From: Bispira polyomma
Lineage: Eukaryota
Assembly (NCBI GenBank): GCA_965649765.1
Contig: OZ287757.1
Location: 3,410,001 to 3,474,000, forward strand
Direction: 5' to 3'
DNA length: 64,000 bases
Shown here piece by piece: positions 20,201-58,716 of the stretch. Position numbers and translations under genes: made by a program. Within the stretch, counting starts at the first letter, position 1. Every line of letters starts with the position of its first letter. The notes beneath the pieces are model-generated. The model did not search any database. It saw only the letters and a program-made list of their open reading frames with translations, and was not told the origin of the DNA.

Positions 20201-23200
20201 CTGTTCTGATTTTTTTATAACTCCTTTATTAGTTGTGTTATGACACAAGACATGTTGAAAATAACGTTGAACACAAACACTAAACTGACTTTCTCTGACA
20301 AACTTTTAGATTTATTGTGATTTTAATGATGCTTTCAATAAAGGACAGTTTTTTTTCGTGGGCCAAGTATTGATGTAGCTGTTCAATTTAAAAATGACCT
20401 GACAACGGATAACAAATATCATCAACAAGGCCTAATTATCTAGATGTCATCCATATAAAGGTCAAACATATGTATAACCAACCTTGATGCATAATGTGTT
20501 CTATCATCTAAAGCTTTTGCCAATTCTGCCTGCAAAATGACGGCATGATCATCTTTCTCTTTCAACTGACCATATGCATATGTCAGTTTTTGCTGAAGTT
20601 CTTCTAATCTAAATGTACAGACTTAAAAATTTATCCCTTAAAAGATTGAGTCACAGGGTAAAGGAATATATTGTGAGAAAATATCTGAATACACATATGT
20701 CTTACATTAAGTTTGACATTATGTCTATTTTAGACAGAAAATAAATCTGAAACATTGTATGCAGAAGCTACTAAATGTATTTGTACCAAGCTGCAACTAG
20801 AAATTGGGTTAGTAACATAAAAACAATGCATCCATGAAAGACCAGTGTGAAGTGTCGAAGAAATAATTATTGCACTAATCAACATTCCTGTAAAATCCAA
20901 AATTCCTGATAGCAATCAAAATGAAAAAACAAAGATGGTCGTCAAATTCAAAATCTTTTTGAAAAGTTGCTGTACACATATAGCTACTGAAAGCCATTTA
21001 ATGGCTGCAGACATGGAAGACATACTTTGTTACCTCTACATCACCTACCCCCTTCCATTTATGTCAGATACTATTTTCCTAAATGTTTTGAGCATATTTA
21101 TCCATCATAATTTCTACAACAAAGATAAAACTAAGATGATAACATCACACGGCATTGCATTTAAATTCATACTTGTATTATTATACTCATAATTTATACT
21201 CATATATATCAACCTTTGTTTGGCATTCAAAATTCCAATTAACCTTTTCTGGATTGCTAATGGGAATGGGAGCCAATGACGGAAGACACAATGATTTAAG
21301 TGGTAATCCGAGAAACTATGTATCCAAATAATTTGTATTCCTAAACTGGTGTGTTTACTAGGTCAGAGCAGCAGATATAGATAAAATTATGTACTTTGTT
21401 GATGGTTATATTAATGTTACGAAATCCATTATCAGTATATTTTATTATATAAACAGACCTTTCTTGGATGTCTTTCTTCTGGTGTGTAGATTGCTCCAAT
21501 TCTTTCTCAAGATTATTTATCTTGTCCTGTGATTCTTCTAAATGGCTGCCTGCTGGTGGACAGTGTTGATCGTTTATTCTAGAGAGCATATGGAGACTTG
21601 ATATTTTTACAGCACCATCGCAATATAATTAAATAATACACATAAAATATCGCATGATAATATTATCTAAGGATATTGTATTTCTTGATTTTGATTGATA
21701 CATATATATAATCATGTTTTATAAAGCAGTAAAGGTCACGTATCTTTAACGATTAATGCTTAATAGTGTTGAAATTACATTTTAAGGCATTATGTTGTGT
21801 ATAAAAAGCAAACCTGCATCTGCAGGACCAAACACAATTTTTTCGACCCTAAAAAAAATGTTCCCAGAAATTGAAAAAATATGAAAAAAAGTATTATCGG
21901 TAATAGGTTACACATAGCTGGAGTTCCTAAAACGCATACCACTTCCTGCATTCACAAACAGGCTTGCATATATTTTTCAAAATGGGGCAATTTTCTGAAA
22001 GGAAGCAGTTTCTTACATTTACAGTAATTAAAATATTTGGCCAATGTCGGCCGGGAAATGTTGGCTGAAAGGGAGCTTAGACTAACCCAACTCAAAATAT
22101 GATGTAACTAACCCATCTCAATATATAATGTAACTAACCAAACTTAATATATGATGTAACTAACCCAACTCAATATATGATGTAACTAACACAACTCAAT
22201 AAATGATGTAACTAACCCAACTTAATATATGATTTAAATAACCCAACTTAATATATGATGTAACTAACCCAACTTAATATATAATGTAACTAACCCAACT
22301 CAATATATGATGTAACTAACCCAACTTAATATATGATGTAACTAACCCAACTTAATATATGATATAAATAACCCAACTCAATATATAATGTAACTAACAC
22401 AACTCAATAAATGATGTAACTAACCCAACTTAATCTATGATGTAACTAACTCAAATCAATATATGATGTAACTAACTCAACCTAATATGTAATTAACCTA
22501 ACTCAAAATATGATGCAACTAACCCAACTTAATAAATAATGTAACTAATTCAACTCAATATATGATGTAACTAACCCAACTTAATATGTAATTAACCCAA
22601 CTCAATATATGATGTAATTAACCCAATTTAATATGTAATTAACTCAACTCAATATATGAAGTAACTAACCCAAATCAATATTTGATGTAACTAACCCAAC
22701 TCAATATATAATGTAACTAACCCAACTTAATATATGATCTAACTAACCTAACTTAATATATAATGTAACTAATTAAACTTAATATATGATGTAACTAACC
22801 CAACATAATATGTAATGTAACTTACCCAACTTAATATATGATGTAACTAACCCAACTCAATATATGATGTACGTAACCCAACTCAATATATTTGTTAATT
22901 AACAGAACTCAATATATGATATAACAAGACAAGAGGAGAATGGCCTGGCGGCCATATCATGATAATGCCACTACAAAGCAAGTTACTGACGAGTCTGGAA
23001 ATAGTGAACCAGTCACTAGTCAGCGATCGAAATGGATTTCGAGAACCATCTACTGTGGGTACCCAGTTTGGTAAAAAGGCAAAATTCAAAGTAAAATCTG
23101 AAACATATGTATAGACAACCGAATCACCTTAAAAAAATGTTTTGATAATTTATGTTTCACATAAGTATTTTGTATCCCCACACACATTTTTTAGCGCTAC

Positions 23201-26200
23201 ACTGGTACACTTAGTTCAATTATAATTGTTACCAAGCAAAAAAAATATATTTCCTGCCATCAAAAACCATCCATTGAATCTAAAATTTACTCCTGTATCT
23301 AAAATTCACCACCCCTATGATTTAAGCCAAATAAATAAAAACTGGCGAAAAATAACTGGTAAGGAAGGCAAATTATTCATAAAAATATTAGTTTAAGCAA
23401 ATATTTACCCCAATTCTACCCAAAACACAACATTTTCTAGGTTGCAAATTTCAGATTGTGGCAAATTTTATATTCCTTACAGCCACAGCCACCCATTAAC
23501 CAAAGTATGTATATATAGGTTATATATCTTCCCAAACCTAATGTTTGTCTTGTATATTATATATTCCTTTCGAAACCATTTCAAATGGGCTGTAATGGAA
23601 CCTTTAATCAAATCTGAGGATCCCAATATTTAAAAGCTAAATACCTTCTATACTGCATATATTCACACCAAATTAATTTTGGACCAACTAGAGACCAAAA
23701 AGTGTATATATACCAAATTCAAGAGCATAACTCCCTACAGATTCAGAGATTACCCTGTTGACACGTTGTAACCATGTGTAACCAAGGTTCTTCCACTATA
23801 ATTGGATTTCGAGAACCATCTACTGTGGGTACCCAGTTTGGTAAACCAAAGGCAAAATTCAAAGTAAAATCTGAAACATATGATATTGTTTAAACCTCGA
23901 AAGTATTACTAAATATAACTCACTGGGCCATTTTTGGTAAATTCCCTGTTGCAGGTGAACAAAGGTCTGAATTTGAAATTGTTATGGTAGTTCCACGAGC
24001 TGAAATTACATAAAATATAACATTACCGTAAATGGCGTGCATCTTGTAACTATTCACTTAAATATAGTTTCATGATTCAAAGTATCAATAAGCATTTGTA
24101 TCTCTATTTCTCTGTGATTTACTTGAACTGAAACTAAATTACCTAAAGTGAAATGTTTATTGATCAGAGACCCTCTCTTATCCAAGTGAGTTGGACATAA
24201 ATCCTGATGATGTAAGAGTTGAGAAGCGGTATTTGCTAAGAAAAAATATCCTAGTGTATATGTATGCATTAATTACTTCTAGGGATTTCCGATTTAACTA
24301 AACTGTTGAGTGACCGCCTTTTGATCGGCAGGTCCATGGATGTAAACCTGCCAGAGGTATTAGCTTCGATTTTAATATTACAATCCTCAACCACCAGGTA
24401 AAATATTATAAGGGTTGAGGTTTAAAAACAGTTCAGCGCCCATATTCACTAAAGTTCTTATACTTAGAATAATTCTTATACTTAGAATAAGAATCATTCT
24501 TATACTTAGAATAAGAATCATTCTTATACTTAGAAAATTTTCCATTTTAATAATTTTGTTATTCCTATTCTTAGATTAAGAAATTTCTTAACTAAAAATT
24601 GTAAAAAGCAATACATAAGAATGCCAGGGGCCGTATTCACTAAAGTTTTTATACTTAGAATAAGACTTTTTCATGTTCACTAAAGTTGTCATACTTAGAA
24701 TAATTCTTATACTGAGAATTATGCTTAGAAAAATTCTTATACTTAGAATTTTTGCTTATTCTTAGAAAGTTTTCTAAGAATGAGCTTTGATTCTAAGAAT
24801 GGGAAAGACCTTACTTAAGTTAAGAAAAAAACATGGCATTCTTTATGTAAGAATAGCTAAGAAAATTCTTATTCTAACTATAAGAATAAAAAATTCTTAG
24901 AATAGAAAATTTTTTAAGCATAAGAATGATTCTTATTCTAAGTATAAGAATGATTCATATTCTAAGTATAAATATGATTCTAATTCTAAGTATGACAACT
25001 TTAGTGCATATGGCCCTATGTCTTTTTCTTAACTTAAGTAAGGTCTTGACCATTCTTAGAATTAAAGCTCATTCTTAGAAAATTTTCTAAGAATAAGTAA
25101 AAATTCTAAGTATAAGAACTTTAGTGAATACCAAAACTTCTTATTCTAAGTATAAGAACTTTAGTGAATACAGACCCAGGTATTACCCACCCAGGATAAG
25201 CCGGGTTAACCTGTACTGGGGAATACTTGGTAATACTTTCAAAAGTGAGCAATACTCTAAAAGGCTGGGTAATACTGCGAAAGGTTGGTCATACTAAAAA
25301 GAAACCTTGAATAATAATGTATATTTTTTTTTAAATATTTATTTACATAAGTCGATGAGAAAGATGTTTTTTCCCGACAAGTTATAACTGTTCAACAATT
25401 TATGGAAACTAATGAAGGGTTAAAATTCTGCTTTTATATAATTGTTGTTAAAAGATTAAAGGCCACAGTACTGAAGTAGGAATGTCTCTAATGTGAGATG
25501 GTGTAATCCCACATAAAATATGATATGAAAATTATCCTGTAACAGAAAGTATTTGCCACTTAGCTCAGGTAAGTCTAAGGTTTCACTATAATAAGTTGTT
25601 ATGGTGGGCTGACGCCCGTGCGACAGCCCCCCTCAGTTCTGGTGGCAGGTCACTGGGAGGCTAATTAAGCCACCTGGGGTCACGGGGGCAAGTATAAAAG
25701 GGATTGCCGCCAACAGGCGCCATCATTAGTGAAAAACAGTTCTTAGATACAAGTGTTTTTACAATTGGGGTTTTTACTACCCAGGGCTTTTACTACCCAG
25801 ATATTGTTTTACATTTTAGTTGAATGTGTAGTCATGCCTAAGGAATACCCGTGTAGTGTATGTTCTGGTCGGCACGGACGTCCAGTTGGGAAGAAATGTA
25901 AATTTAATCCGTTGGACAGCGTCGCTGATGAGGTGGCTGCCGTTGATCCTGCTGTGCCTGCTGTTTCTGATTCCGTATCTAGTTTGATACTTCAACAACT
26001 GGTTGTAATGAATGAGAAGATGGACAGCATGGATCAACGAGTACAAGCTACTGAGGCGGCGCTGTGTAAACCCAGCGCCCAGGCATGTAACACAGTTTCT
26101 AAACCTGTATCTAATGTCCCTAGTGTTAGTGAACCAGTGATTGAGGCCGTTGTGCCCTCCCTAGATTACCTGCGTTCAAATTCCAGCTTACAAAGTCAGG

Positions 26201-29200
26201 TAGACCAGCGGTTGCTGCAACTGCAACAACTCCACGATTTAACGGGAGGTAAACTGAAATCCCAAAGAGGTGGCGCGGAAGCGCCCGTTAAACGTCATGT
26301 TGATTGGCCACAAAATTTTGTCTTGTCTGGTGTAAAAAAGGTTAGGCCCACTTACGATGACCTTACTTTGGTACAGTTCGTTTCCGGCTTTGTTCGCTGT
26401 ACGCAAGAGCAAAAAGACTCCTCGGTCCGCGAGGCTATGTTGGAATATCTGGCATGCCTGATGGATGACGCCCATGATTTTTCGTGGGACGCCGCCAAAG
26501 CCGCTCACGCCATTTTATTGACCAACATGGAAATGGACCGATTGAACTGGACAGATGTCGAAAAGGTCGACCGGATACGCCGCGCTCATGCACAGCGTCA
26601 TGTAACGTCCTCAGCTAGTGGGTCTGGCCTTTCTAAAAGCAATATTGGCAGTAGGGGTAAAACCTCGGTGAAAACAGTGGGAGTAAACTGTCGATTCTTT
26701 CAGGAAGGCACGTGCAAATTTGATGCCAGCCATCGCACTTCTGGACAGTGGTTCAAACACTGCTGTGAGAGCTGTGGTGGCCCGCATCAAACCAAATTGT
26801 GCTTCAAAAAATCGGCCGCAAAAAACTAAGGGGCCACTGCAGTAGTGCAGTGGCTGCTAAGAAACTTGTACGTGAAACCTGCTCCAGAGTTGTATATAAT
26901 TCTACTTTTAGGGATTTTAAACTGTTTGATCATGTGTGTTGTAAAGATAATATGTATACTGGACCCCGACTTAACAGGTCATACCGGGACGTGTTGCAAC
27001 AGGGCCTTGTGGTTCCTGGTATCGAGATTGGTGAAAACCGGGAAATGGGGACAGTTAACCCTATGTCTGTTAATAAAGCCCCACAAGGTAGTGTGTTCCA
27101 TAATACCGCATTACACAAGTTGTCGGGAGGGAGGCATTCACCCGTGGAAGTGTTAAATACACCCGCTGACAGGCGACGTGAGAAAACAATTCACCAAAAG
27201 GTGTTAAGAAAAACACCTTTGGGTGGTGTGAAAACTTCTGTGAATAGGCGGGTCGGTAACCATGCAAACCGGGTGTTACAAAATCAACCAATTGTGTCCA
27301 AAACAAGTAAACTAAGTGATGGCCAAGGCGGGCCTAGACGGTTGGGTTCTCTGAGTGTGAAAACAATTGGCGCGGGTACCACTTCCAGTAATGCTAACAA
27401 TAGTGGGTTTCGCCTTCCCCTGCATAACCGGTTTAGTGGCCTAGACATTCCTGATGTAGAATTTCCTGAATCTGTTGACACGTTGGGTAAGGTCGATTTC
27501 ACACCTATTCCACTTCTTGACTCGAGTGACACGTTGGGTAGGGTCGATTGCACACCTATTCTACCACCTGACAAGAGATCTAACCCGTGTGATGACAAGT
27601 ATGTACTGGACCTCTCAGGAGGCCTTGATAAGAGACAGCGCTTAAATGCAGCTAAAGATAATGTGACCTACAAGTTGTGGGATATACAGAATAGTGGGAA
27701 GTATGGGTTCATACCAACTAGTTCCTGGGGTAACCCAGTGATTGATAGCTCCAATAACCAATTGATCACAGATGTGTTTACACTACATAAGGCCCTTAAA
27801 TTGGATGGGAGACCAAATTATAAGGGTTTACAAGTCCCCATACATACCCAACTGACGGTCCCTGCCTGGGAAAAGTATTTAGCTAATTATTGGGATTGGG
27901 AACTCCCCTTACTGATAAAATTCGGATTTCCTCTTGACTGTAATGAAGAACATGACTTCAAGTCTGACTTGAACAATCATGCTTCAGCCAAGCAATATCC
28001 TGAGCATGTGAATCATTACCTGAAAGAAGAATGTTCTATGGGTGCTATGTATGGACCTTTCGTCCATCCCCCAATTGATGATGTGCACACATCTCCATTT
28101 ATGACTAGAGACAAATCAAGCTCGGTTAACCGACGAGTTATAATAGATCTCAGTTGGCCCATCGGTCATTCGGTTAATGCAGCTGTGTCATCAAATTCGT
28201 ATTTGGACAAGGAATTTGTACTTACTTACCCTTCTATAGATGACATAACCCAACAAGTGTTGCAAAACGGTAGGGGCTCCTTGCTATTTAAAGCGGATAT
28301 TAGTCGCGCATTCCGTCATGTGACCATAGACCCCAGAGACATCAATCGTCTGGGCTTATACTGGGACGGCTACTATCTCGACGGCTCGTTGCCCTTTGGC
28401 TACCGACACGGTTCGGTGATTTTTCAGAGAATTTCTGACAGTATAAGGTATATCATGGAAGGTGAAGGTCATAAAATCACCAACTATATCGACGATCTCT
28501 TATGTTCTGCTGTTCCCTCGAAAATCTATGAAACGTACCACCGACTGCAGGCCCTTTTGGCCGAGTTGGGTTTGACTCTTAGCAAGAAGAAGCTGGTTCC
28601 TCCAGCCACCCGGGTAACCTGCCTAGGCATAGTTATAGAAACAGTTCGGTTCACTACATCCATACCAGAGGACAAACTAGCTCAGGTTCAAAAAATATGT
28701 GCCAGTTGGAGTGATAAAAAGCAGTGTACTAAGCGGCAGCTCCAATGTTTATTGGGTTCTTTGCTGTATATTTCCAAATGCGTGAAGTACTCACGATTTT
28801 TTCTGAATCGGATGTTGCAACTCCTCCGAAGCAATCACCACGAAACAAGTATCAAAATTAACCCTGACTTCAAAAAGGACCTTAACTGGTTCATTCAGTT
28901 TCTCCATAAGTACAATGGGGTGACATTTTTTCATCATGCCCCCATCACTGACATTGTAGAGTTGGATGCCTGCCTAACAGGCATGGGAGGAGTGTATGGC
29001 AAACAAGTATATTACCTTCCCATTCCTGCTGCTATGCACAAACATAATATTGCTTCATTGGAGATGCTCAACATTCATGTGGCTTTGAAGTTGTGGGGCA
29101 AATACTGGCAGGGACGTAGACTGTTAATTAAATGTGATAACCAGGCTGTTGTGAGTGTCCTTACGCATGGTAGAACTAGAGATAGCGAATTAGCCCTGTA

Positions 29201-32200
29201 CTCGCGGAACATATTCATGCTGGCTAGCCAGCTCGATGTAGACATACAGGTCGTCCATATTCTAGGAAATAACAATACCACCGCTGACCTCTTGTCTCGT
29301 TGGACAAATTCAAGTAAGGATAATGTTCTCTTACAGGAGCTGGTGGGCGATGTCCAATGGTGTGCCGTGACAGAGGACCACTTACTGCTCAATCACCACA
29401 TTTAGATATTCCTTGTCCGGTTGCATGCTATTATGTTCATCAGCCTTTACAAATGTTACTTTGTCTGCTTGTGTTGTGTTATAGCTAGAACTCCCCTGCA
29501 GCAGTTATTATATCAAAATGCAACGAAGAAGCTTCACTTGGCCTTCTGCAGGTCCACAGACAGATCTTATACTGCGATGTATAGGGTGTACCAAGCTTAT
29601 GCATCCTTCTCGGATCTGCCTTGTGACCAGGTGACAGCTATTGATCTTCTTGCTTTTTTAGAATTTTTACACTTTAACTCTGTAAAACCTGCCCATATGG
29701 CTAATTATTTATCTGCTATTAAAACTAAGAGTATTGTATACAATGTGCCCATTCTTGCCTTCAGTGACCCTCGCTTGGCTTACTATCAAAAGTCTGTCCA
29801 ATTGGCTGCCCCCTTAAATGTTCAGCTCAAAAAGATTATAGACATACCTCTTCTGACGAGTATTGTCAATGTCTCCAACACCACTTACATGGGTCCTATC
29901 TTTACAGCTGTGTATTTGGTCAGCTACTTTTCCTTCCTCAGGTTATCTAATTTAGTACCCCATTCCTGTCTTCAGTTTTCTGCTTTGAGACATCTATCCA
30001 GGGCTGATGTCATGTTTCACAGGGACAAAGCTGTCCTTTTGGTAAAATGGTCCAAAACGATGCAGAGCAATAATCAGATTAGACTTATTACTATCCCACG
30101 CTTGCTGGGTTCTCCTCTTTGCCCTGTGGGGTCACTGCAGGCAATTATGGCTCTTACTCCGTCTGAACCTAATTCACCCTTATTTCAATTGAAAGACAAA
30201 TCTCACTGGGTTCCGCTTACGGACACCCGTGTCCGCAGGCATTTCAAAACGATACTTGCCAGGCTCCAGTTGCAGGATTCTGGCCTCACACTGCACGCTT
30301 TCCGACGTTCGGGTGCCACTTTTGCCTTTAACCATAACGTCAGCATTCAGAACATCCAAAAACATGGCACTTGGACGTCGGATTGCGTGTGGAGGTATGT
30401 TACCGACTCAGTGGATGCGGGACAGCAGGTATCGGACACATTTCGCCTTCATCTTGCTACTTCTTCTTCCTAGTTCCTACGTGCTGGGTTTGGGTGTTTC
30501 TACTCAAAATTTAGTCTATATTTCATATTCTAGATAATTATGTAATTTTTGCTTTACATGTAGTCACATACTAGTCATGTATAGTGTCATATAGAATTTA
30601 AATTACTATTTCACTTGCTACTCATTTCATGTTACAACTATAAAGTTAACTTCACAGAGTAGTGTTTTATTTCCTAGTAATTGTATGCTACAACTAGTAA
30701 TTCAACTTCATGAAATAACTGTTTCATTAAAAGGTAATACAATCTGTAATTAACTGAAAAATTACAACTTAACTCTTCTTCTATACATTTTAGGGTCACC
30801 TCAATTTGTAATTCCCTTATGGGTTAAAAATTTAGTATACTAACCTGTATTTAAGGTGATCTTTAGCCCCCCTTTTGTAGTATAAATTTGAAGATCATCT
30901 CCTTTTTAAGTACCCTACGGGCTTTGTCATTTCACTTATTTAAACTGTCTTGGGGTGACCTTATCTTGTTCTTTGAGGTTATGTAAAATATTTTATTACT
31001 TTCACTCAAATTAGTATGACTTAAAGTTACAAATTACCGTGACCTTAAGTCACGTTGTATATAGTAGTTTAACATAGACTAACAATAAAATATTTTACCG
31101 CATTCTGCTTACTTACTATCTTGCTTTCTTGACCTCTGACCCTTTGGCCTGTCACGCGGGAAATGTGGTGGGCTGACGCCCGTGCGACAGCCCCCCTCAG
31201 TTCTGGTGGCAGGTCACTGGGAGGCTAATTAAGCCACCTGGGGTCACGGGGGCAAGTATAAAAGGGATTGCCGCCAACAGGCGCCATCATTAGTGAAAAA
31301 CAGTTCTTAGATACAAGTGTTTTTACAACCCACCCTGTACCCTCCCATTTAACAGTTTGTTATAGTTGTAGAATGTCGGTGAAGTACAGTTCCATGGATC
31401 TCAGCGACGTCTGGACCCTTATGGTGTAGCTAGCTGCTTGTGCTCCGGTGGTTCTGATCCTCAATCATTGTGTTAAGTAGGGGGCTATATTACTTAGCCA
31501 TGTAGGACATATGGAAAGAGCTAGATAAGGATCTCTGTAAATAACCCAGTCTAATGGTTTACCACTGGATAAGGCCTAAGGTTAAGCGCGCATGGACCTG
31601 GATTTTAACAGAAACGAACATTTACGTAAAGGGTCTTACTGCTATGCGACTTTTAGCTAAGCACAGACTTTTCTTTTATATAACGGATTTTACTTTTATA
31701 CTTTTACCTTTACGTATGTCTTGCAGACTAACTTATAGCATTCTGTGTACTGACTTTTCTTTTATGTAACGGATTTTACTTTTATACTTTTACCTTTACG
31801 TATGTCTTCCAGACTAACTTATAGCATTCTGTGTACTTACCTGCGTGTAAGTCTTCTTTTAACTATCCTTTATGTGTGTTACAATTTTATATATATAATG
31901 GGTGTTTCTACTCAAAATTTAGTCTATATTTCATATTCTAGATAATTATGTAATTTTTGCTTTACATGTAGTCACATGCTAGTCATGTATAGTGTCATAT
32001 AGAATTTAAATTACTATTTCACTTGCTACTCATTTCATGTTACAACTATAAAGTTAACTTCACAGAGTAGTGTTTTATTTCCTAGTAATTGTATGCTACA
32101 ACTAGTAATTCAACTTCATGAAATAACTGTTTCATTAAAAGGTAATACAATCTGTAATTAACTGAAAAATTACAACTTAACTCTTCTTCTATACATTTTA

Positions 32201-33667
32201 GGGTCACCTCAATTTGTAATTCCCTTATGGGTTAAAAATTTAGTATACTAACCTGTATTTAAGGTGATCTTTAGCCCCCCTTTTGTAGTATAAATTTGAA
32301 GATCATCTCCTTTTTAAGTACCCTACGGGCTTTGTCATTTCACTTATTTAAACTGTCTTGGGGTGACCTTATCTTGTTCTTTGAGGTTATGTAAAATATT
32401 TTATTACTTTCACTCAAATTAGTATGACTTAAAGTTACAAATTACCGTGACCTTAAGTCACGTTGTATATAGTAGTTTAACATAGACTAACAATAAAATA
32501 TTTTACCGCATTCTGCTTACTTACTATCTTGCTTTCTTGACCTCTGACCCTTTGGCCTGTCACGCGGGAAATGTATGTCACATGTTGTTTGTTTACTGGT
32601 CTCTTGATTGTGACATATTTCGCTTGGGGTCAATATGGTTAGGTCGCAAGAACAGAGATGTCACCCGCCAATAGGCCTACTCGATGTCGAGCCCACACGA
32701 CACTTGAAACTCATGAGGCATGAGGATGCTTATTTTATTGTGATTACTGTGCTTTTTTTTCTCCATCAAAATCCGTTAACAAAAGGCTCAGATGTTTATG
32801 TTTATTTAACTTCCTCTTTTACTATGATTAATACATCACAGCAACGTCATAATGACGTCAGTTTTGTAGCTACGTCACAACTTACACAAAAGGGGATAAC
32901 AATGGGTACCCATCTATAAACTTTAATATATGAGCTATTTTTTAACAGATTTGATGAAAAAACAACAGCACAGTAATTACAATAAAATAGGCTTTCTCCT
33001 GCCATTTTCCAAGTCACTATACCACAAATTTTTAGTGTATATCGGATGAAAGGAAGCACAACGTCGGCCTATGTCGGATTGGATCGATCAGACACCTTTA
33101 AATGTGCTGAAAGGAAGCTTAGGCTTATATTTCTGGCACAAAAATAAATATGTACTTACCACTATCAATTTCACCTGGTTTCTTGAGTGCTCCCAATTTA
33201 GACTTCCCACCTGTATCCTGATTTTTTTCCTGTTCATTGTTTTCCTGCGTAGTTTCTGACATTTCCCCACAAGGAGCATTGCTTCCATTTTTATATCCCT
33301 CCACTGGTGGAGTATGCCCAAAGGTATCCAGATCTTTCTGGAGACCCTGTTGTATAATAGGAGCCATTTGTAGGAAAGTCTGCATATCTGACTTTATCTT
33401 GTTACCAAGGCCTGATTCAGATTCTGCAGAGTAACTTAAAGACACATCAGAGACAAACTCCTTCATATAGTAAATCTCATCTATATCAGTTTTTTCATGT
33501 TTCATGTCAGATTCAAGCAGTTGTTTTAGCTGTTTGCAGTGTGCTGTAAAATCTTTAGCCCCTTTATAACAATCAGTGTGGTCCTCAGCACTTCGGTATT
33601 CTAGTGGTAAAACCAGAAGGTTCTTACAAACTGTCTCTGTCTGCTCCTTGCTTAATCCAAAAGCCAT
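14211..33667 (-). CDS. Coiled-coil protein with MIEAP/SPATA18-like C-terminal domain, 10 coding exons, ~556 aa
   Basis: join 33667-33160, 23999-23924, 21578-21459, 20608-20483, 19241-19116, 18187-17983, 17693-17589, 16557-16420, 14995-14881, 14362-14211; all GT-AG, phases match, total 1671 nt with one terminal TGA. Motifs RLSKEMG..NIENIS..HRP...Y..F...W.EAKEAL, LAWKMIVQRPPM and YVFPSLYHGKSVMVKGTV resemble the MIEAP C-terminal domain (recognised from memory, not searched). AATAAA at 14138-14133. Confidence 0.8.
15600..16200 (+). mobile_element. Degenerate L1/Tx1-clade LINE ORF2 fragment (post-RT region), intronic
   Basis: GKITVINTLMLPK...IPN...IQEINTIFYKFIWDDKLDKVSR matches the GKITVIK..LPK...FIW..KPDKIKR pattern of Tx1/L1 ORF2; stops and frameshifts around it; boundaries approximate. 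Confidence 0.7.
16630..17460. repeat. Probable non-autonomous repeat with degenerate internal subrepeats
   Basis: Recurrent aa(g)atggc/gcc-aaaatt and tcgcacc/atttct motifs; boundaries approximate. Confidence 0.4.
22081..22920. repeat. Minisatellite, 26-bp unit (taactaacccaact[c/t]aatatatgatg), about 32 copies with some shorter variants
   Basis: Directly visible head-to-tail units with no unique spacers. Confidence 0.95.
23033..23882 (+). repeat. Pair of ~78-bp near-identical direct repeats (23033..23109 and 23803..23882)
   Basis: tggatttcgagaaccatctactgtgggtacccagtttggtaaa...atctgaaacatatg occurs twice, differing by a 3-nt indel. Confidence 0.9.
24436..25176. mobile_element. Palindromic AT-rich MITE (nested or compound), PIF/Harbinger-like
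   Basis: Ends cgcccatattcactaaagttctt / aagaactttagtgaatacagacc flanked by cag on both sides; inner ends gggccgtattcac (~24628) and gtgcatatggccc (~25016); many tcttatacttagaat subrepeats in both orientations. Related ends at ~8390, ~48474, ~52417. Confidence 0.7.
25602..25764 (+). repeat. Element 1 repeat A1
   Basis: Identical by eye to 31166..31328. Confidence 0.95.
25693..25727 (+). promoter_or_regulatory. TATA box plus initiator inside A1 (copied in A2 at 31257..31291)
   Basis: TATAAAAG at 25693; TCATT initiator-like motif with its A at 25725, 32 nt downstream. Confidence 0.65.
25834..26829 (+). CDS. gag: Gag-like ORF1 of element 1 (331 aa from first ATG)
   Basis: N-terminal C-x2-C-x3-H-x7-C motif, coiled coil, RPTYDDLT..QFVSGF core shared with element 2, C-terminal Cys/His cluster CRFFQEGTC...H...HCCESCGGPH....C. 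Confidence 0.85.
   Translation: MPKEYPCSVCSGRHGRPVGKKCKFNPLDSVADEVAAVDPAVPAVSDSVSSLILQQLVVMNEKMDSMDQRVQATEAALCKPSAQACNTVSKPVSNVPSVSEPVIEAVVPSLDYLRSNSSLQSQVDQRLLQLQQLHDLTGGKLKSQRGGAEAPVKRHVDWPQNFVLSGVKKVRPTYDDLTLVQFVSGFVRCTQEQKDSSVREAMLEYLACLMDDAHDFSWDAAKAAHAILLTNMEMDRLNWTDVEKVDRIRRAHAQRHVTSSASGSGLSKSNIGSRGKTSVKTVGVNCRFFQEGTCKFDASHRTSGQWFKHCCESCGGPHQTKLCFKKSAAKN
26799..29405 (+). CDS. pol: Pol ORF of element 1: reverse transcriptase plus DIRS/Ngaro-type RNase H
   Basis: RT motifs FKADISRAF, LPFG, YIDD, CLG; RNase H motifs LDAC, LEMLN, KCDNQA, ADLLSR. Confidence 0.95.
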   Translation: MLQKIGRKKLRGHCSSAVAAKKLVRETCSRVVYNSTFRDFKLFDHVCCKDNMYTGPRLNRSYRDVLQQGLVVPGIEIGENREMGTVNPMSVNKAPQGSVFHNTALHKLSGGRHSPVEVLNTPADRRREKTIHQKVLRKTPLGGVKTSVNRRVGNHANRVLQNQPIVSKTSKLSDGQGGPRRLGSLSVKTIGAGTTSSNANNSGFRLPLHNRFSGLDIPDVEFPESVDTLGKVDFTPIPLLDSSDTLGRVDCTPILPPDKRSNPCDDKYVLDLSGGLDKRQRLNAAKDNVTYKLWDIQNSGKYGFIPTSSWGNPVIDSSNNQLITDVFTLHKALKLDGRPNYKGLQVPIHTQLTVPAWEKYLANYWDWELPLLIKFGFPLDCNEEHDFKSDLNNHASAKQYPEHVNHYLKEECSMGAMYGPFVHPPIDDVHTSPFMTRDKSSSVNRRVIIDLSWPIGHSVNAAVSSNSYLDKEFVLTYPSIDDITQQVLQNGRGSLLFKADISRAFRHVTIDPRDINRLGLYWDGYYLDGSLPFGYRHGSVIFQRISDSIRYIMEGEGHKITNYIDDLLCSAVPSKIYETYHRLQALLAELGLTLSKKKLVPPATRVTCLGIVIETVRFTTSIPEDKLAQVQKICASWSDKKQCTKRQLQCLLGSLLYISKCVKYSRFFLNRMLQLLRSNHHETSIKINPDFKKDLNWFIQFLHKYNGVTFFHHAPITDIVELDACLTGMGGVYGKQVYYLPIPAAMHKHNIASLEMLNIHVALKLWGKYWQGRRLLIKCDNQAVVSVLTHGRTRDSELALYSRNIFMLASQLDVDIQVVHILGNNNTTADLLSRWTNSSKDNVLLQELVGDVQWCAVTEDHLLLNHHI
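26820..26855 (+). promoter_or_regulatory. -1 programmed ribosomal frameshift signal (gag-pol)
   Basis: A_AAA_AAC in the gag frame directly before TAA, 6-nt spacer, perfect 9-bp hairpin gccactgca-gtag-tgcagtggc; pol is in the -1 frame. Confidence 0.8.
29485..30473 (+). CDS. Tyrosine recombinase of element 1 (frame open from 29421; probable splice acceptor at 29484)
   Basis: Catalytic set LRLSN (R), WSKT (K), HAFRRSGAT (HxxR), HGTW, VWRY (Y); LCPV motif. Confidence 0.95.
30491..31166 (+). repeat. Element 1 repeat B1 (AATAAA at 31084)
   Basis: Matches 31899..32574; one mismatch noticed (A30570/G31978). Confidence 0.95.
31166..31328 (+). repeat. Element 1 repeat A2
   Basis: Copy of A1, abutting B1 with a 1-nt overlap. 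Confidence 0.95.
31329..31898 (+). other. Element 1 unique non-coding spacer; candidate structured RNA; contains an 86-bp tandem duplication (31666..31837)
   Basis: Lies between A2 and B2; hairpins ggcta/tagcc and ccagt/actgg; homologous motif at 63401..63510. Confidence 0.6.
31899..32574 (+). repeat. Element 1 repeat B2 (AATAAA at 32492)
   Basis: Copy of B1. Confidence 0.95.
32715..33124 (-). mobile_element. Truncated copy of the MITE at 34784..35470, opposite orientation
   Basis: Reverse-complement match of the core (acgtcataatgacgtca...gctacgtcacaac); ends tgctgaaaggaagcttaggc followed by tta. Confidence 0.75.
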
Positions 33668-34783
33668 TTTGACAAAATGTATTTTTGGGGGGCCTACAAA
33701 TTGTACTAAATATCCACAAATTACACCTTATCAAAGTAAAGAAGAAGACAGAGATACTTTATGAATAATTCATGCAGTTTTATATGTAGTATTGTGGTTG
33801 TTTCACTTTCGTTTTACTATATGTGTTTTTTAATGCAATGTAGAATGTATGTAAAATTTCAAACTATTATATCAACCTGTTAGATCCTCTTATGATGCTG
33901 TATTAGTCATCCACAAACAATCGTCTCTCTACAGTTTACACTAAAAGATAATCAGTCTACTCCATTATCCTTTAAAACACCAACGAAATAACACTCTTTG
34001 CAAGTACTTGTTTTGGCAGTCTGGCAAACGAATTACAGTACATCCTTGTTTATGAGGATATGTCCCGTAGTATACAAACCTATAGTGAAAGTGAAAGTTA
34101 AAACAAATATCCATTATAATGTAAGTATGCACCTATATTGACAATTATAGTATGTCGGGCGCATGTAATTGTTGAAGTATGCTAGAATGTTTATAACCTA
34201 TCTTATCTATCAGTAGTCCTAACAAGGTATTGATCACTCAGCTAGTATGTATATCTAATCAACAGTGATCAGAATAGGGAACAATATCGCTGATACAACA
34301 CACCTTCATACATAAATGTAGTATTAGAATAGTTTTAGCTGCTATAATATGAGAAAATAAAGGAGCCCATAAATACAAGCCTTTTATATCAGAACAAACA
34401 AAATAAGTTAAGTACTTCGTCCATCAAAGTGTACACATCATCCGTAAACGGCATCTGTAAATGTCACTGATCCAAGATCATGTATTTTACATAACCACGT
34501 AGTTAGTTTTGAGGCATAACTTTGGTATTTGTGAATTTGTGAATTTTTTTCATAAATCTTTTGCAATTTTCTTTAGTACCAGAAGCCACAAAGTTGAAAC
34601 TAAATAAGTTTATATTGTACATAAGTAACTGAAGTGTTCTTAATGTTAGTGTTTTACAAAAGCTGTTGCTGGTGTGTAACAATCACATAGTTGCTGCCCT
34701 AAATTGCCTCACCGAAATTCAAGTCCAAAGTACACTTTCATTAAATATTTTCAAAAGATACTCCTACTCTATGAAATAGCTTA

Positions 34784-35470
34784 GCCTACGCTTCCTTTCA
34801 GCATATTCCGACGTCGGCCGATTTGTGTGTGTCCGACGTCGGCGGACGTCGACCGATGTAACGCTTCCTTTCATCAGATATATACCCAATATTCGTCGGA
34901 TGTTGGCTTTAAAAATGGCATAAGAAAGCTTATTTTATTGTGATTACTGTGCTTCTTTTTTGACAAAAATTCGTTAAGAAATGGCTCAGATATTAAAGTT
35001 AAAAGAGGGGTACCCATTTTTACTTGCTAATGTGTGAGTTGTGACGTAGCTGCAAAATTGACGTCATTATGACGTCACGGTGACGTATTATTTACTGCAG
35101 AAGGGAAGTTACATGGGGTACCCATCTATAACCTCAAATATCTGAGCCGTTTCTTAACGGATTTTGGTGGGGAAAAAGGCACAGTAATCACAATGAAATA
35201 ACCTATCTCATGCCATTTTCAATGTCACCATCTGACGAATATTGAGTATATATAAGATGAATACTATACCTATGATAGTATTTTTGAAGACATTTTTGTT
35301 TCAAAATCGGACAGTCTTCCCGATTTTTTCCCTCCCTGAGAGATAAAATATGTTGGCCAAACAGACGTCGGCCGACGTCTGATCCGATCTGATGCAAATC
35401 TGCTGAAAGGAAGCACTTGGTGGTATTGTATAATGAGGGGAAAAGCGTAGGAAGCGTAGGAAGCGTAGGC
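34784..35470 (+). mobile_element. MITE with long imperfect TIRs and TTA target duplication (PIF/Harbinger-like)
   Basis: tta|gcctacgcttcctttcagca ... tgctgaaaggaagc...gcgtaggc|tta. Confidence 0.8.
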
Positions 35471-37811
35471 TTACCTCAACACATTAGGACATAGCCATTC
35501 CTGCATTCTGTTCGGTGTCGTTTCAAGACCCTATTTGTTTAGACAACTTGTCTCTGTCATTCATAATTTTTTATATTTAAATTTATTTATTTATTCATAC
35601 ACAAAGTATAATATTACAAACACAGAATACATAAATGTTTTCACAACCAGGAACAAGGAACAATGTTATTATAGTTTCGCAATTACATTAAATTTTATAC
35701 AAATCTTTATGATGTACACAAACATTCTAACATATAATTAATCTCAGTATAATTAAATTTAGTATGATTTATCTCTTTAATCATAATAATAGACAATAAT
35801 AGATAATAAGATCTCTAATATTTCCACATATATTTCATCATCTGTGTTAATCTGAGAGTGAACATGTTTGTCACTTACATTTTTAAATTTTTGATGTGCT
35901 TTAAGAGCACATGTATAGCTACAATTGAGTTCCTTTGAAATTACATAAATATTTTTTTCCACATTGGAATGACTTCAACAAACACCCAGTCTACCAGCAA
36001 GTTTTACCAATTGTTATCACTGGTCAAAATTGTATGTTTAAATTTGTTGAATCTTTTATACAACCGCACATTAATTGGGACATCATTGTATACTAAATGT
36101 ATCTCTATCGTTTTTACTTTTGCATTTGAACCAATTATGTCATTATATGATTTAATGATTTTTTTCTATTTTTAGGGATTGGTATAACTGTTGATACAAG
36201 TAGGTCGCCAGGTGAAAAACAATGCTTTAACATAGAGATGTACAGTAAAATAGGATATACATATAATTTATGACAACCATGAATAATGACTTTATTTTGG
36301 CTCTCGTGCTTTTTATTAATACTAATATGCCCACATATAACACGGGAATACGTGTGATTTGGTTATCTTAAATATTTAATCACCATATATTAATATTTTA
36401 TATTAACATGCGTAATTTAATGTAAAAAAAAAGATGTAGAATTCTTCAGAAAAATTACTTTTTTTGTGCTTGTGTGTGTGTGTGTGTGTTTATTTCTCTG
36501 TGAGTCATATCAGTACACATAATAGCGTAGATTATAATACAAAAAATAAGCTGACGGTATATCTGACCAAAATAGTTCAAACGTTGGTTTAATGACTTTT
36601 CTTCTCTTTCTAAGTGAAATACAGCCTATAGTAGTTAAAACATTTTAGTGTTACCCATTGTATCTCCATAATTAAGTGTGAACTGTATTACTGTATCATA
36701 TATATGATGGCATTGTGATTGTTGACACCTATAGTCACTTAGTACGTTCTGAATCAACAAAATAATATTATCCTCTCATAAAAACCCCAGGATACTCATC
36801 TATTTACTTTACGGTCAAAAATATAAATTGTATCATATAGTACAAGGAAACAAACATTGACAAGCATATTAGTGATTGTCATAATTATTCTATCTATCAT
36901 TTTGATGGAAACAATTCAAAGGGGCACACTAATTCATCCTGTTGACTTACCTCTAAGTCCCAGTGAGTTCCGGCAAGTTTGGACACTCTATTCCTTTGCA
37001 TTGCTAGTAAAAAAATAAAGCAGTAAAGTCAAATAACCTGTTGTTTTTTTCTTATTTAGTATATCTAATATATCATTCCAGATATAAACCTATGTTCATA
37101 AATAATTAGTTTCCTTAAAATTGGTCACTTACATTTCGAATATCAGTTTGTCTTCTTCATCCAGTTCTGGTGCTTTATGGTGCAGCACTTGTTTGACTTC
37201 TAGACATCAGTCATACACTGGTGGTAATCATTACCAACTGTCATTGGATTATGTTTGAGACTAATGTTTTCAAGTTTACCAAAATATTACTTATTCTACA
37301 AGTATATTTAATTGTTTCACTAGTTTTCGTGCTACTACTAGTTTTCGTATTTTTTCTTTGAACTTTTTATTTTTGATCTTTATATATTCAAAAACAAATC
37401 TTTTGTTTCAGTCTAATGTTCGGGCCAAATTATGCGTTATTAAAGGTAATATCAAGGTTTATTTTGCATATTTTTTATTGACATTTTACTGATAACTAAC
37501 ACAAAAACTGCATTATATTATCTTAAAGTGTCTATTTAGATTATTGAAGTTTTACACTTCAAACATAACAAATTGCAATAAGCTAAGTCTGTTAAGTATG
37601 CAGTGATTTCATTTGTCGAGAAGACTTGTGCACGTGTACTGTACTTGTTGGATATTTTGTTGCTGTCTTCAAAGGGTGAAGGCAATTATTGATGTATTAT
37701 ATTATGGATGGCAGTAAAATTACCTTTGTTGTGCGTCAGCACTATATCTGGACGCATGTTTTTTGGTGTGAATGGTGTTGGGCATGCATTTTGTATTTCT
37801 TACAAGACACT

Positions 37812-38836
37812 CATACATCGAATTATTGAAGAAACGGTTGATGACCACCATAACAAAACAAGGCTGTGAAGGTTGGGAACAAGGAGCTTGTGTTTGCTTT
37901 GTATGTAGAAAAAGACAATAATAAGGTATGCATTATAGGATCTATTTGTAGATTTAAGGTAACTAAATTCCACTCAGCATTATGCAATAATATCGTTGAC
38001 GTTTGTCTAACAAGGAAATTAGGGGAAGTTCCCAATAATCATACATACAAAAACGAGGTAGACATCCGCAGTCAGTGAACAAATGTTCAAGCGCCTGTCA
38101 AAATTAGGAATGGACACACCCACAAAATCATACAAAAACCCTAATATCTGTATCCTATCTTAATCTATCAAAATAAAAAAAAATCATGCACAACTAGAGC
38201 CCAAACTGTATATTTGTCCTACAGGTCCCTACCACTAACAAGATTAGCTTGTCGAAACGTTAGAGAGCCTCAGAGAGCTCCAGTTCCGTAATAAAACAGC
38301 AATGCGTAACTTCCGCAAAATTATGTCATTGCTGTAAAAAATAGTGAATTATGTGTGACAACATTCATTGTGATTCACCATTATTTTTCTCAATCAAAAC
38401 TGAGATGCTTGTATAATATTTATGTTGATTAGAAGCATTTATATTGTGTTAAACTGGTGCAAAGTTTTACTGATGTAAAAGTGTGGATCACATAAAGTGG
38501 AAGCTAAGGCTATATAAGTCTGTTTGATAATGGTGAAACACTAAACATGGCACAGGGTCTACACGAAATATACAAAAATATACAGAAATACTAACAATGT
38601 CTGAACATTTAAACATATTTAAAATTTATATATAAAATTATGTACATTATTACTGTAACACCGCTACATATTTTTAGATGCCATTCATATGACAATTATA
38701 ACATCAAATAGTCACTGCCAACAGTTAAAACATTAAAGGTTTATGGACAAACGTGATCAATTATAAATTCATAGGAGAAAACAACTAAACAGAAACACAG
38801 TTCTGTTTGTTGTCTTGATTTGGGAGAACACTTAGA
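37812..38836 (+). repeat. ~1 kb dispersed repeat, copy 2
   Basis: See 11416..12428; homology stops where the element 3 remnant begins. Confidence 0.8.
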
Positions 38837-54295: not shown

Positions 54296-55732
54296 ATGGG
54301 TAGGACAAAAAAGACACCCATTCAAAGTGTTAAGAAGAAATCAACGAGGATGGCCACAGCTACTAGCAAGGTGTCAAAAGGGGGAGGCGGTACACAGGTA
54401 AAAAATATTGCTTCCAGTCTTCATGATCAGACAGAGTTATTGCATAATACTGATCTCTATTCCGCTACTTCCCTTTCTGATTCACAATTGCTTACAAACA
54501 TAGACAGGCTCCAACTTAATCAAGATGTGCAGTCTACTCTCGGCCTTTATTCTCAGGCTGTGCCAGAGCAGCAGCCAGAAACTCAAAATATGTCCGAAAT
54601 GCTATCCATTTTGCGGAAGCTGGAATCGTCAAACGCTAGCATCTCTAGGCGCTTTCAACTCGTTGAAAACAATCAAGGCAATGTCACGCCAGTAAACTCT
54701 CCTTGTCACACGATGAGGGATGGAACTGTCATCCAGCAAAAACCACATGTGGCTTATTCTTTGCCTCTTCCCCCTCCCAGATATAATGGGGTCGAGCAAA
54801 CGCAGGGGGTGCAGCAGACGGCATTACCTACAGGGCAGCAAGTTCCGGTTCCAGGCATGCAGCAAGCTCAATCGTCCGGTGTGCAACACGCGCCACTATC
54901 CGGCATACAACAAGTTCAGCTACCCGGGATGCAGCAGGCGTCATCATAGGGGATGCAACAAATGCCACTACCTGGGGTACAACAAGTTCCATTACCGGCT
55001 CAAACCACGGTTAATCAAACTTACAACAGGGATGGTATTATTCCAAGTTTAGACGCTCCTAGATCATTCCCACATGTGCAGGCAGCGGTTACCAGGCAGC
55101 TGGCCGACTACGAGGCGCTGGCGCAGAGAGGGCTTGCTCAGGGTAAGCATACTGTAAGACAAAAGTCTGGTCACTTTAACACAACAGACATCACTTTGGC
55201 TGACCCTCAGTTAAGATGGTCCAACGAGGGCTGGGGGGGATCAGCTAGGCGGTGACCGGGATTTGATGATCTCACATTGCCCCAGTGGGTGGCGGGCCAA
55301 CTGGTCAACTCTCTTCAGGTAACAGATTCGGACACCATGAAGTCAATGGTAAACCAAGTTGTATATGCTTTGCGTGATGCGGCCACAGTAACCTGGCCAG
55401 TAGTCAGGACAGCCTGGGCCCTCAGCATGCATGAGGTCGAAGAGGGCAGGCTGTCCTGGCATGACACCACACAATGGGCACTTAACTGCATAAGCGCCTC
55501 GCAGATGGCAATGGTTAATAACCACAGCAGTAACGGGCCGACAACTGACAGCAAGTCAATCTGCAAGTTGTTCAACAACGGAAAATGCACACACAAAGCT
55601 GACCACGGCACATATCGCCAGGTGTGTTGGTATTGCAGTATAACCCTTGGGAAAGACGCATCACATCCAGAGTTTAAGTGCTTCAAAGCAAATGTAAGCA
55701 AACAACCAGACAAACAGGTTAACAATAGTTAG
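54296..55732 (+). pseudogene. gag: gag of element 2, two in-frame stops (54947, 55253)
   Basis: Track ORFs 54296, 54953 and 55277 share one frame; PGFDDLTLPQWVAGQL core; C-terminal CKLFNNGKC...H....VCWYC...HPEFKC. Confidence 0.85.
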
Positions 55733-58710
55733 GGACACGGTTCACAACCAGATGGACGAACAATTTTAGTTAGTGATAAGGGCAGTTCAGTAGAAGTTGT
55801 AAAACCACGTAGTAACTTAATGGACGTACTTGACAACATAAGTAAAGATTCTGAAAATGTAGATATAAATGTAAAAGTCAATGTTGATAATTCTGTATTT
55901 AGTAACTGTAACGAAACTGTATATAGTAAAGTTGTATCAGAACAATTGGTGGCAACCTATAACGAGATGCAGTCTAGTATTAATCATGTACACAAATTAA
56001 ATCAGTTTCAGAATACCTTCAATGTCAGGCAATGGGATGTAGCACCAAATCAGGTGCAGATCAATAAGTCAGTAAGTGAATGTCTTAATAACTTTGCAGG
56101 CACAGATCTGACAGGTGGGTGGTGTGGCCAAGAGAGCAATCAGCCCAGCCACATTTCTTGCACTAATTTACTTGTGATAAATAGTAGCAGTCACAACAGT
56201 AATATTTCTCAGTTGAAGGAAGGGGAATTCATAGTAAAAATTTCTGTCACTAATTGGCAAACATATTGTGAGGGAATTCAAACTCAGGCCCCCATTGTAC
56301 ATGTTAGGAGCACAGATGAACATATTAACGGTTACTTTCATATGTACTTTGATGTGACTGCTGCTATTCATGTCTATATGGGGGTTGAAATTCCACCCAA
56401 CAGAGAGCTTCAAATTATTGATGTTTTTCAAAGTAATGTGTTAGTCAAAATTGTTTCTGTGGATACCACTACTCCCACCGAGGTGGAATTTCATCACCAC
56501 AGTGTGATAAAGCAAGCAGCAGATACTTTCTATTACTATAGTAGAGACAAGGCTTGTATGAGGCAATTAGGATATAATTATACTGAGTACATGAATTGGT
56601 TAGTGGATGCTCTTATTGACGAGGCAGATGATAAGATTAGTCAATTCAGCAGTAGTTTGGATGACGCAGCAGACGTCAACGTAAGTTCAAATGGGACTGG
56701 CACCAGTCTCAGTTGCGATAAAATATACAAAACTTCGTTGAACAACAACTTCGCTAATATGGTACAGAGTGTACATGACAGCAATACCACTGACATTAAC
56801 ATTAAGGACGTGAATGACCCGCATAAAAGCTTTGGTTTTATGGCACTTTCCTCAACTGAGTTTACTTTTGTGGGTCCAGACAGACCACCTAAGGATATTA
56901 AGACGGTAGAAGACATGCTGGAGGTGGCATCTGTGATCAGGGACACCTCAGTACCAAATTATAGGCAGGCTCGCATACCTATAGTCTCTGGCTTAAACAT
57001 AAAAGCATGGGAGTTTACTTTTGTGGGTCCAGACAGACCACCTAAGGATATTAAGACGGTAGAAGACATGCTGGAGGTGGCATCTGTGATCAGGGACACC
57101 TCAGTACCAAATTATAGGCAGGCTCGCATACCTATAGTCTCTGGCTTAAACATAAAAGCATGGGAGGTCGTTTTCAGAGATTACCCTGACAAACTACTTT
57201 GTGAATACATTAAGTTCGGTTTTCCTCTCTCTTTCACCGACCCCAGTAAGTTAAGTAACAATTGCGTGGTTAACCACTACTCTGACTTGCAGTACACACA
57301 GAGTGTAGGAGAATATCTAGTTAAAGAAGGTAGTAAGAGTGCCATGTTGGGCCCAGTTTCAGAGGTTAAATCCTCTCATTACCATTGTTCTCCGTTATTG
57401 ACTCGCCCAAAGGACATAGATAGTCGCAGGGTTATCTTAAGCCTTTCATACCCTTTGGGTTGCTCAGTTAATGAGAACGTTGACAAGACTCTTTTTGACG
57501 GCATAAGGTTTCTGTTAAAATTTCCTACTATAGACAATATTACTGACGCAAGAAATCAAACAAGTGACCCTGTCTTATTTAAAGTGGACGTCATGTGCGC
57601 GTTTCGCAATTTGCATGTGGACCCAGTCGACGCACTGAAATTGGGCATCACGATTAACGGTGAGAATTACTTAGATCCGGCAGTTGCGTTCGGCTGGGTC
57701 CACGGTAGTGCAGCTTTCCAGCATTGTTCTGACACAATTGCGTCTCACATGCGTCAGCATGGCTTCAACATGTTTTGTTACATAGACGGCTACACTTGCG
57801 TCTCTACTAGGGCAGAAGCACAGAAAGGTTTGGATTTATTTGACCCAGTTACTTAACTCTCTGGGATTGCCTATGAATGCAAGCAAACGCACTCCACCCA
57901 GCACCAATATCACGTGCCTGGGCATTGACATCAATATTACTACAGGAACTATCAGCATTCAGCAAGAGAAAATTGCGGAAATTTTAGAAATTTGTTGTGA
58001 CGTTTATAACAGAAGCACTATTACCAGAAGTAGATTTCAATCACTATTAGGCAAATTATTGTACGTGCATAAGTGTGTTAGACCGGCTCATAGTTTTATT
58101 AACAGGCTTCTGAACGCCTTCAGGAATAATGACAATAAGCGTAAATTTTTTATCACTCAGGACATGCGAGACGACCTGGCATAGTTTAAAAAATTCTCAC
58201 AGATTTAATGGCATCACCTACATTGACCCGCTCATAATACCCAACTTTAACAAACTGCACCTGGATGCGTGTCTTACAGGTTTGGGCGGAGTTTGGAAAG
58301 ACGAGGTGTATGCTACCCCCAATTTTAATGTTTACAACAAAGAGTTGACTATTGTTCACTTGGAGATGTTAAACATTATACTTGCATTAAGAGTTTGGGC
58401 ACTTAAATGGGCACACCAACATATTTCATTTCACTGCGACAACATGGCCGTGGTTCTGGTTGTGAACACACAGAAAACGAAGGATTCTTTTTTAGCAGCG
58501 TGTCTAAGGAATATCTGGCTCATTGCTGCCACATATGATATCACAATTAATATACAACACATTCCAGGTAAACATAATATCATTGCAGATGCACTTTCCA
58601 GAATATACTCAGCAAAACCTCCCAGTGCAGAGCTACTTCATAAATTATATACCCAGTACAAATGGAACGAACTACCTGTAAAATTTTTTGACCTGGAATT
58701 ATTTATATAA
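55733..58710 (+). pseudogene. pol: pol (RT/RNase H) of element 2, frameshifted
   Basis: FKVDV..AFR, VAFG, YIDG (second catalytic Asp lost), LDAC, HLEMLN, HCDNMA, ADALSR; frameshifts near 57845 and 58190; 153-bp tandem duplication. Confidence 0.9.
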
Positions 58711-58716
58711 TTTTAG

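Follow-up and report, generated by a model that had tools for sequence, protein, structure and literature searches.

The gag/pol junction of a tyrosine recombinase (YR) retrotransposon of Bispira polyomma carries a slippery heptamer, A_AAA_AAC, followed after a short spacer by a hairpin, and comparison with related copies confirms this cassette, as judged from sequence, as a real and strongly conserved canonical −1 frameshift signal. Canonical −1 ribosomal frameshifting very probably makes the Gag-Pol protein of the element. The −1 frameshift mechanism itself is textbook, and A_AAA_AAC is the heptamer used by HTLV, astrovirus and MMTV. The features discussed below, all from the window (the whole 64,000-nucleotide stretch of DNA analysed), are collected in the table. 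Publications are cited by their PMC accessions.

Table. Positions of annotated and predicted features in the window.
Feature	Positions	Strand	Basis or remarks
Split direct repeat A1, 5' element end	25602..25764	+	163 nt, 100% identical to 31166-31328
gag-like ORF, 331 aa, C-terminal Cys/His finger, Lys-Asn-stop end	25834..26829	+	ORF list; 120 homologues in other assemblies; weak zf_CCCH_4 match, E 0.069
Predicted 5' splice donor G/GTAAAC, phase 1, after gag codon 138	26249..26254	+	Inferred from sequence
Slippery heptamer A_AAA_AAC, gag frame	26820..26826	+	Sequence; 40/40 close copies; 37/41 clade-A families
pol, −1 frame: long linker, reverse transcriptase, RNase H; first ATG 26952	26820..29405	+	RVT_1 E 7e-8, RVT_3, RT_RNaseH
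Spacer, 6 nt, contains gag stop TAA (26827-26829)	26827..26832	+	Sequence
Hairpin, 9 bp, 4-nt loop (GCCACTGCA / GTAG / TGCAGTGGC); predicted frameshift stimulator	26833..26854	+	Sequence, folding
Predicted polypyrimidine tract and 3' splice acceptor TAG/C, phase 1	29470..29484	+	Inferred from sequence
Tyrosine recombinase exon, 328 codons open past acceptor	29485..30473	+	Phage_integrase E 0.0028, below curated Pfam cut-off
Split direct repeat B1	30491..31166	+	Aligns to 31899-32574 over 676 nt
Split direct repeat A2	31166..31328	+	Repeat comparison with A1
Split direct repeat B2, 3' element end	31899..32574	+	Repeat comparison with B1
Second YR element (clade B): in-frame UAG-G at gag/pol junction with conserved CAACCAG..CGAAC; predicted readthrough signal	55730..55761	+	Comparison of clade-B families

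The region 26818-26854 reads GCA AAA AAC TAA GGG GCCACTGCA GTAG TGCAGTGGC. A sequence-only reading of the window had placed here a heptamer, a 6-nt spacer and a 9-bp stem with a 4-nt loop, all of which the letters bear out, and had described pol as open in the −1 frame across the site, which is likewise correct (ORF 26769-29405, opening 17 codons 5' of the site). It had also stated that pol lacks an ATG for about 50 codons; the late start stands but the distance does not, the first in-frame ATG lying 44 codons past the first slip codon. The retroviral design invoked in that reading, X_XXY_YYZ plus a spacer of 5-9 nt plus a structure, is present, with the heptamer in the gag frame, and corresponds to the spacer and stem-loop arrangement described in PMC7618472. 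For mammalian ribosomes, A_AAA_AAC ranks with the heptamers that most promote shifting (PMC5009743).

In the mechanism we propose, a ribosome whose P site holds AAA and whose A site holds AAC would meet the hairpin at its entry channel, and the hairpin would stimulate a tandem slippage of tRNA-Lys and tRNA-Asn, from AAA AAC to AAA AAA, giving the transframe peptide ...A-K-K-L-R-G-H-C. Most ribosomes would stop and release Gag, while a minority would slip back by one base and synthesize the reverse transcriptase (RT) together with RNase H as a Gag-Pol fusion, perhaps a few per cent of the time if viral stem-loops, put at 5-10% in PMC7618472, are a guide. The frameshift may thus have a role in setting the ratio of Gag to Gag-Pol.

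The identification of the host element as a YR retrotransposon, also made in the sequence-only reading, holds up on its split direct repeats, its RT and RNase H domains and a weak match to Phage_integrase. The layout is A1-ORFs-B1-A2-B2, the order by which Ngaro elements are defined (PMC8547959, PMC9210276, PMC4157794), with the ORFs in the order gag, RT/RNase H and tyrosine recombinase. The pol ORF ends shortly after RNase H, and no methyltransferase family was found in the three ORFs at E ≤ 0.1 (Pfam, where a blank is a weak test). By layout and domains, rather than by a tree including named references, the element appears to match the Ngaro-like elements of the order DIRS, which share the arrangement A1-gag-RT/RH-YR-B1-A2-B2 and the absence of a detected methyltransferase (PMC9210276, PMC4157794, PMC3783388, PMC3266345, PMC8547959). 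The family is young, many copies being 99-100% identical over 501 nt (40 scored of 353 candidates), and pN/pS against four sisters is 0.18-0.39 in the RT/RNase H region. The linker between the slip site and RT (26880-27900) comprises about 300 poorly conserved amino acids with pN/pS of 0.55-0.77, and neither a Pfam domain nor a protease match was detected in it.

Taken singly, the window copy offers modest evidence for the structure, as its folding z is weak in fixed windows (60 nt, z −2.07, 6/200 shuffles; 121 nt, z −1.35, 19/200). The isolated 22-nt hairpin, whose bounds were chosen on the stem itself, reaches −16.2 kcal/mol with z −5.0 and none of 200 shuffles as stable. An Rfam scan of 26600-27100 returned no match at E ≤ 5.

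To place the site among its relatives, four divergent homologues of Gag and the second YR element of the window served as queries against the genome (1.035 Gb, 75 contigs), and 50 fetched stretches were added. The resulting 260 loci (241 distinct) are top matches, not a random sample, and group into 63 families when the sequence upstream of the site is clustered at 85% nucleotide identity, each represented by the copy with the longest −1 frame; as the families are related, counts of them are not counts of independent events. Forty-one families belong to what we call clade A, which includes the first element, and 22 to clade B, and an RT tree of 41 rows (own-genome copies only, five short matches omitted) separates the two clades with 100/100 support.

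Conservation in sister copies had been put forward as a check of the signal, and heptamer and stem are indeed kept in all 40 close copies (92-100% identical, window included), where changes are confined to the loop and the type of stop. Across clade A, A_AAA_AAC occurs in the gag frame in 37 of 41 families; the four misses are single decayed or rearranged copies; in one no gag end can be recognised, and in the other three the heptamer is altered. Relatives that kept the overlap of gag and pol after losing heptamer and stem were also looked for, and none came to light: the 22 families without the cassette, all of clade B, have no such overlap, their pol lying in frame behind a UAG. A genome-wide search for heptamer-N8-CACTGC-N6-GCAGTG gave 1188 exact matches and its reversed control none, which argues strongly against a chance origin. 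A chance motif in an A-rich gag end might draw on the weak z of the single copy in wider windows, but these matches and the 37 families refute it, and we give it practically no credence.

A more serious alternative is that Pol is translated from an mRNA of its own, arising by splicing or from an internal promoter, or that ribosomes reinitiate at an ATG further downstream; the heptamer would then merely encode a Lys-Asn end that Gag requires, and the hairpin would serve some other purpose, for instance in packaging or in reverse transcription. We consider this improbable. Among 1281 stem sites preceded by any coding of Lys-Asn (reversed control 0), the exact heptamer is found in 1188 and another coding in just 93, so that synonymous versions are nearly absent. 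Of 46 Lys-Asn pairs at other places in the last 150 codons of gag, only 2 are written AAA AAC, and in these gags, away from the site, AAA accounts for 335 of 505 Lys codons, AAC for 87 of 260 Asn codons and A for 453 of 1947 third bases. The base preceding the run is A whatever the amino acid encoded there. Gag stops 0, 1 or 6-7 codons past the heptamer (TAA in 20 families, TAG in 10 and TGA in 7), and the heptamer is retained even where gag extends 6-7 codons further. As the stop varies in position while the spacing of heptamer and stem stays fixed, it is this distance, not the end of the protein, that is under constraint.

The pol frame also speaks against an independent start. The −1 frame opens just 5' of the heptamer, upstream of which it is open for a median of only 1-49 codons in 35 of 36 families. 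Past the site, of 164 copies, 130 are open for at least 100 codons in the −1 frame, 10 in frame 0 and 4 in +1. Among the 17 families in which at least 400 codons are open in the best copy, the first pol ATG is scattered between codons 12 and 341 downstream, and pol is without a conserved start codon of its own. The stretch before the first ATG holds 4-7 differences only, and its pN/pS is uninformative.

Outside this genome, 120 Gag homologues were found in other assemblies (best identity 62%, compared as proteins only). Fifty-five of them have a complete finger; 31 of these end in KN, 17 in KN followed by E or D, two have KN further in and five are without it. Six broken homologues contain a peptide that appears to be the stem read in another frame. 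Among related loci in metagenome contigs (600 pattern matches) and viral contigs (71), no relative was confirmed.

The stem gives mixed signs of conservation as a structure. The 23 aligned short-loop families all have a 6-nt spacer. Of their stem cells 88.7% pair, as against 80.0 in shuffled alignments (0/500), and changes on both sides are seen in 20 cells, as against 9.2 (0/500). Outer pairs of the stem covary; the covarying pairs number four, a count not above that of the shuffles (102/500). Pair 26:45 is C-G in 11 families, G-C in another 11 and G-U in one, although this swap may represent one or a few changes. Nine long-loop families have a common CTGY/GCAG core at the same distance (the spacer of this class being about 8 nt) with 94.4% of cells paired, and covariation in this class is not beyond shuffles (117/500). 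Folding z is ≤ −2 in 31 of 37 clade-A representatives. Five core pairs of the stem never vary and the sixth breaks in one row only. Such invariance says nothing for structure, but it points to an additional constraint on the sequence of the core, one that protein coding would hardly explain, since the core lies 3' of the gag stop and includes third positions of pol codons. An invariant core would also suit a hairpin with another job, as assumed when Pol is derived from its own mRNA; the codon choice and frame data cited above nevertheless favour the frameshift. A conserved pseudoknot through the 4-nt loop can be excluded, as 17 different loops occur across the families.

Several departures from the common pattern were seen. 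One family (L101, L236 and L237) has the heptamer with a different, weaker stem that starts about 8 nt on, and the splice donor and acceptor described below were not found at their usual sites in it. In a long-loop family (L131-L142) the length of the C run in the 5' stem arm varies, which puts pol out of frame in several copies. In three sequencing runs, 11-12 contigs each match the window through the stem end (26853) and then diverge from it, as would follow if the cassette, without the linker, were common to other families.

A stop codon ahead of the heptamer is found in a minority of copies. TAA stands directly 5' of AAA AAC at 83 of the 1188 sites (7%), and of 30 such sites inspected 20 have it in the gag frame, one in another frame and nine in a frame that could not be determined. 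Three loci (L284, L288 and L290) have the early stop and yet an intact gag and a pol open to the end of the locus, and copies of this sort, which retain stem and open pol behind the stop, speak for translation of Pol from its own mRNA. Of 30 copies drawn without bias from one family, 16 have TCA at this codon and 10 have TAA, the two intact copies being among those with TCA; in an older family TAA is present in 18 of 30 copies and none of them all stays open to the locus end. Young copies with TAA are 96-99% identical to their sisters with a sense codon. A recurrent change from TCA to TAA beside the A run, in copies that are dead or mobilised in trans, would fit best, and the RT of DIRS-1 does act in trans (PMC7192593); L284, L288 and L290, with gag intact and pol open, do not sit easily with it. 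The change recurs within L261-L350, be it through a mutation hot spot or through trans-mobilised lineages.

The same hot spot, at which 10 copies out of 30 in one family have TCA turned into TAA, might be taken to indicate that the A6 run is a slippage site for a polymerase or reverse transcriptase, with some transcripts or cDNAs gaining an A that brings pol into the frame of gag; slippage of RT has been reported at the HIV shift site (PMC5737442). This we find hardly credible. None of the 21 frame-determined T-A7-C copies is an in-frame gag-pol fusion, and the conserved final C and a hairpin at ribosome-entry distance would fit slippage by ribosomes, not by a polymerase.

Clade B appears to have solved the same problem differently. 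Its representative in the window, at about 54045-61127, has split direct repeats but is decayed by stops and frameshifts; its gag and pol lie in one frame, pol behind a TAG at 55730-55732. An exact tandem duplication of 153 nt occupies 56858-57163 inside this pol. TAG-G is kept in 18 of the 22 clade-B families and in 58 of 65 copies with the motif; in the other four families one or two old copies show a sense codon that is one base away. A search with the clade-B pattern found 114 TAG-G sites (control 0) as against five sites with TAA-G or TGA-G (control 11). All four loci open from the junction to RT have it in frame 0, as do five of 11 long loci overall, the rest being broken. On this comparison, clade B probably makes Pol by type III readthrough of the UAG. 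The arrangement resembles that of gammaretroviruses, with UAG followed by G between in-frame gag and pol (PMC3542737), and departs from it in its conserved short primary motif CAACCAG..CGAAC and in the absence of a consistent pseudoknot or stable hairpin by folding, the predicted junction folds being weak and inconsistent (−2.7 to −12.9 kcal/mol over 60 nt). TAG-G is unlikely to be a splice acceptor: no CAG version occurs in the 22 families, the sequence upstream is rich in A and C rather than in pyrimidines, and the phase does not match the donor in gag.

The recombinase ORF would be reached by another route. A phase-1 donor G/GTA is present in gag in 42 of the 44 families with an anchor for the comparison (19 of 63 lack one) and a phase-1 acceptor ahead of YR in 23 of 26, and the phase-matched pair is conserved in both clades. 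The recombinase is thus likely to be produced from a spliced mRNA in which gag codon 138 is joined to the YR exon and the frameshift region is removed, yielding a predicted Gag(N)-YR fusion. The predicted joint was not seen in contigs of three sequencing runs of unspecified kind, which is neutral for splicing. In the window copy pol and YR are separated by a single TAG, but its readthrough can be rejected, ten sisters (L031-L040) carrying YR in the other two frames. A likely use of splicing for YR lends some plausibility to a separate mRNA for Pol as well, although frameshifting still accounts better for the heptamer.

A bolder interpretation, which we regard as unlikely when taken as a whole with its control by a protein, is that these Ngaro elements possess a full retroviral toolkit, with −1 frameshifting in clade A, UAG readthrough on a new, structure-poor cis element in clade B, splicing out of pol for the recombinase in both, and a CACTGC/GCAGTG core serving as the binding site of a protein, possibly the Gag zinc finger. 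If it were true, a core bound by Gag would amount to feedback-regulated, protein-stimulated frameshifting in a transposon.

The clade-A cassette is much like the viral stem-loop signals of HTLV-II gag/pro, human astrovirus 1a/1b and HIV-1 gag/pol (PMC7618472), all with X_XXY_YYZ, a 5-9 nt spacer, a simple stem-loop and an enzyme ORF in the −1 frame. It differs from them in being known from sequence, in its host, a tyrosine recombinase retrotransposon without LTRs, integrase or a detected protease, and in a stem core that is invariant across families with RT only about 50% identical to that of the window element. A gag/pol overlap with a classical heptamer is also found at the −1 sites of animal LTR retrotransposons, with pol in −1 in 28 of 51 surveyed elements; this survey deals with LTR elements, and the excerpted text mentions neither "DIRS" nor "recombinase" (PMC5009743). 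Published accounts of Ngaro and DIRS elements speak of ORF overlaps or of a "frameshifted" YR ORF and, in the parts excerpted, of no slippery site, stimulator or readthrough signal (PMC9210276, PMC4157794, PMC3783388, PMC3266345, PMC8547959). Searches of full-text literature, whose scope did not extend to the founding Ngaro paper and a 2015 review, likewise retrieved no description of a slippery site or readthrough signal in DIRS or Ngaro elements. Retrovirus-style control of the Gag to Gag-Pol ratio would thus reach a retrotransposon order in which, within that scope, no such signal was found described. How the start-less, overlapping ORFs of YR retrotransposons are expressed is unsettled in the literature as excerpted, and exact, mutable 35-nt signals for pol are now offered. 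Clades A and B provide a natural pair of lineages that would have switched recoding modes at one junction, and in annotation Pol is best modelled as a fusion with Gag.

Other repeats occur in the same stretch of DNA. Just 5' of the first retrotransposon lies a MITE-like element with inverted repeats, made up of short repeats of the TTCTTATACTTAGAA type (24434-25184), and further upstream a tandem array with a 26-nt period (21937-23053). On the 3' side, long inverted repeats (about 80% complementary) at 32717-35261 flank a minus-strand ORF of 200 codons (33125-33727) without a Pfam match, a unit that is possibly a decayed DNA transposon. A pair of dispersed repeats of about 1 kb, 79-87% identical, is found at 11414-12391 and 37810-38795.
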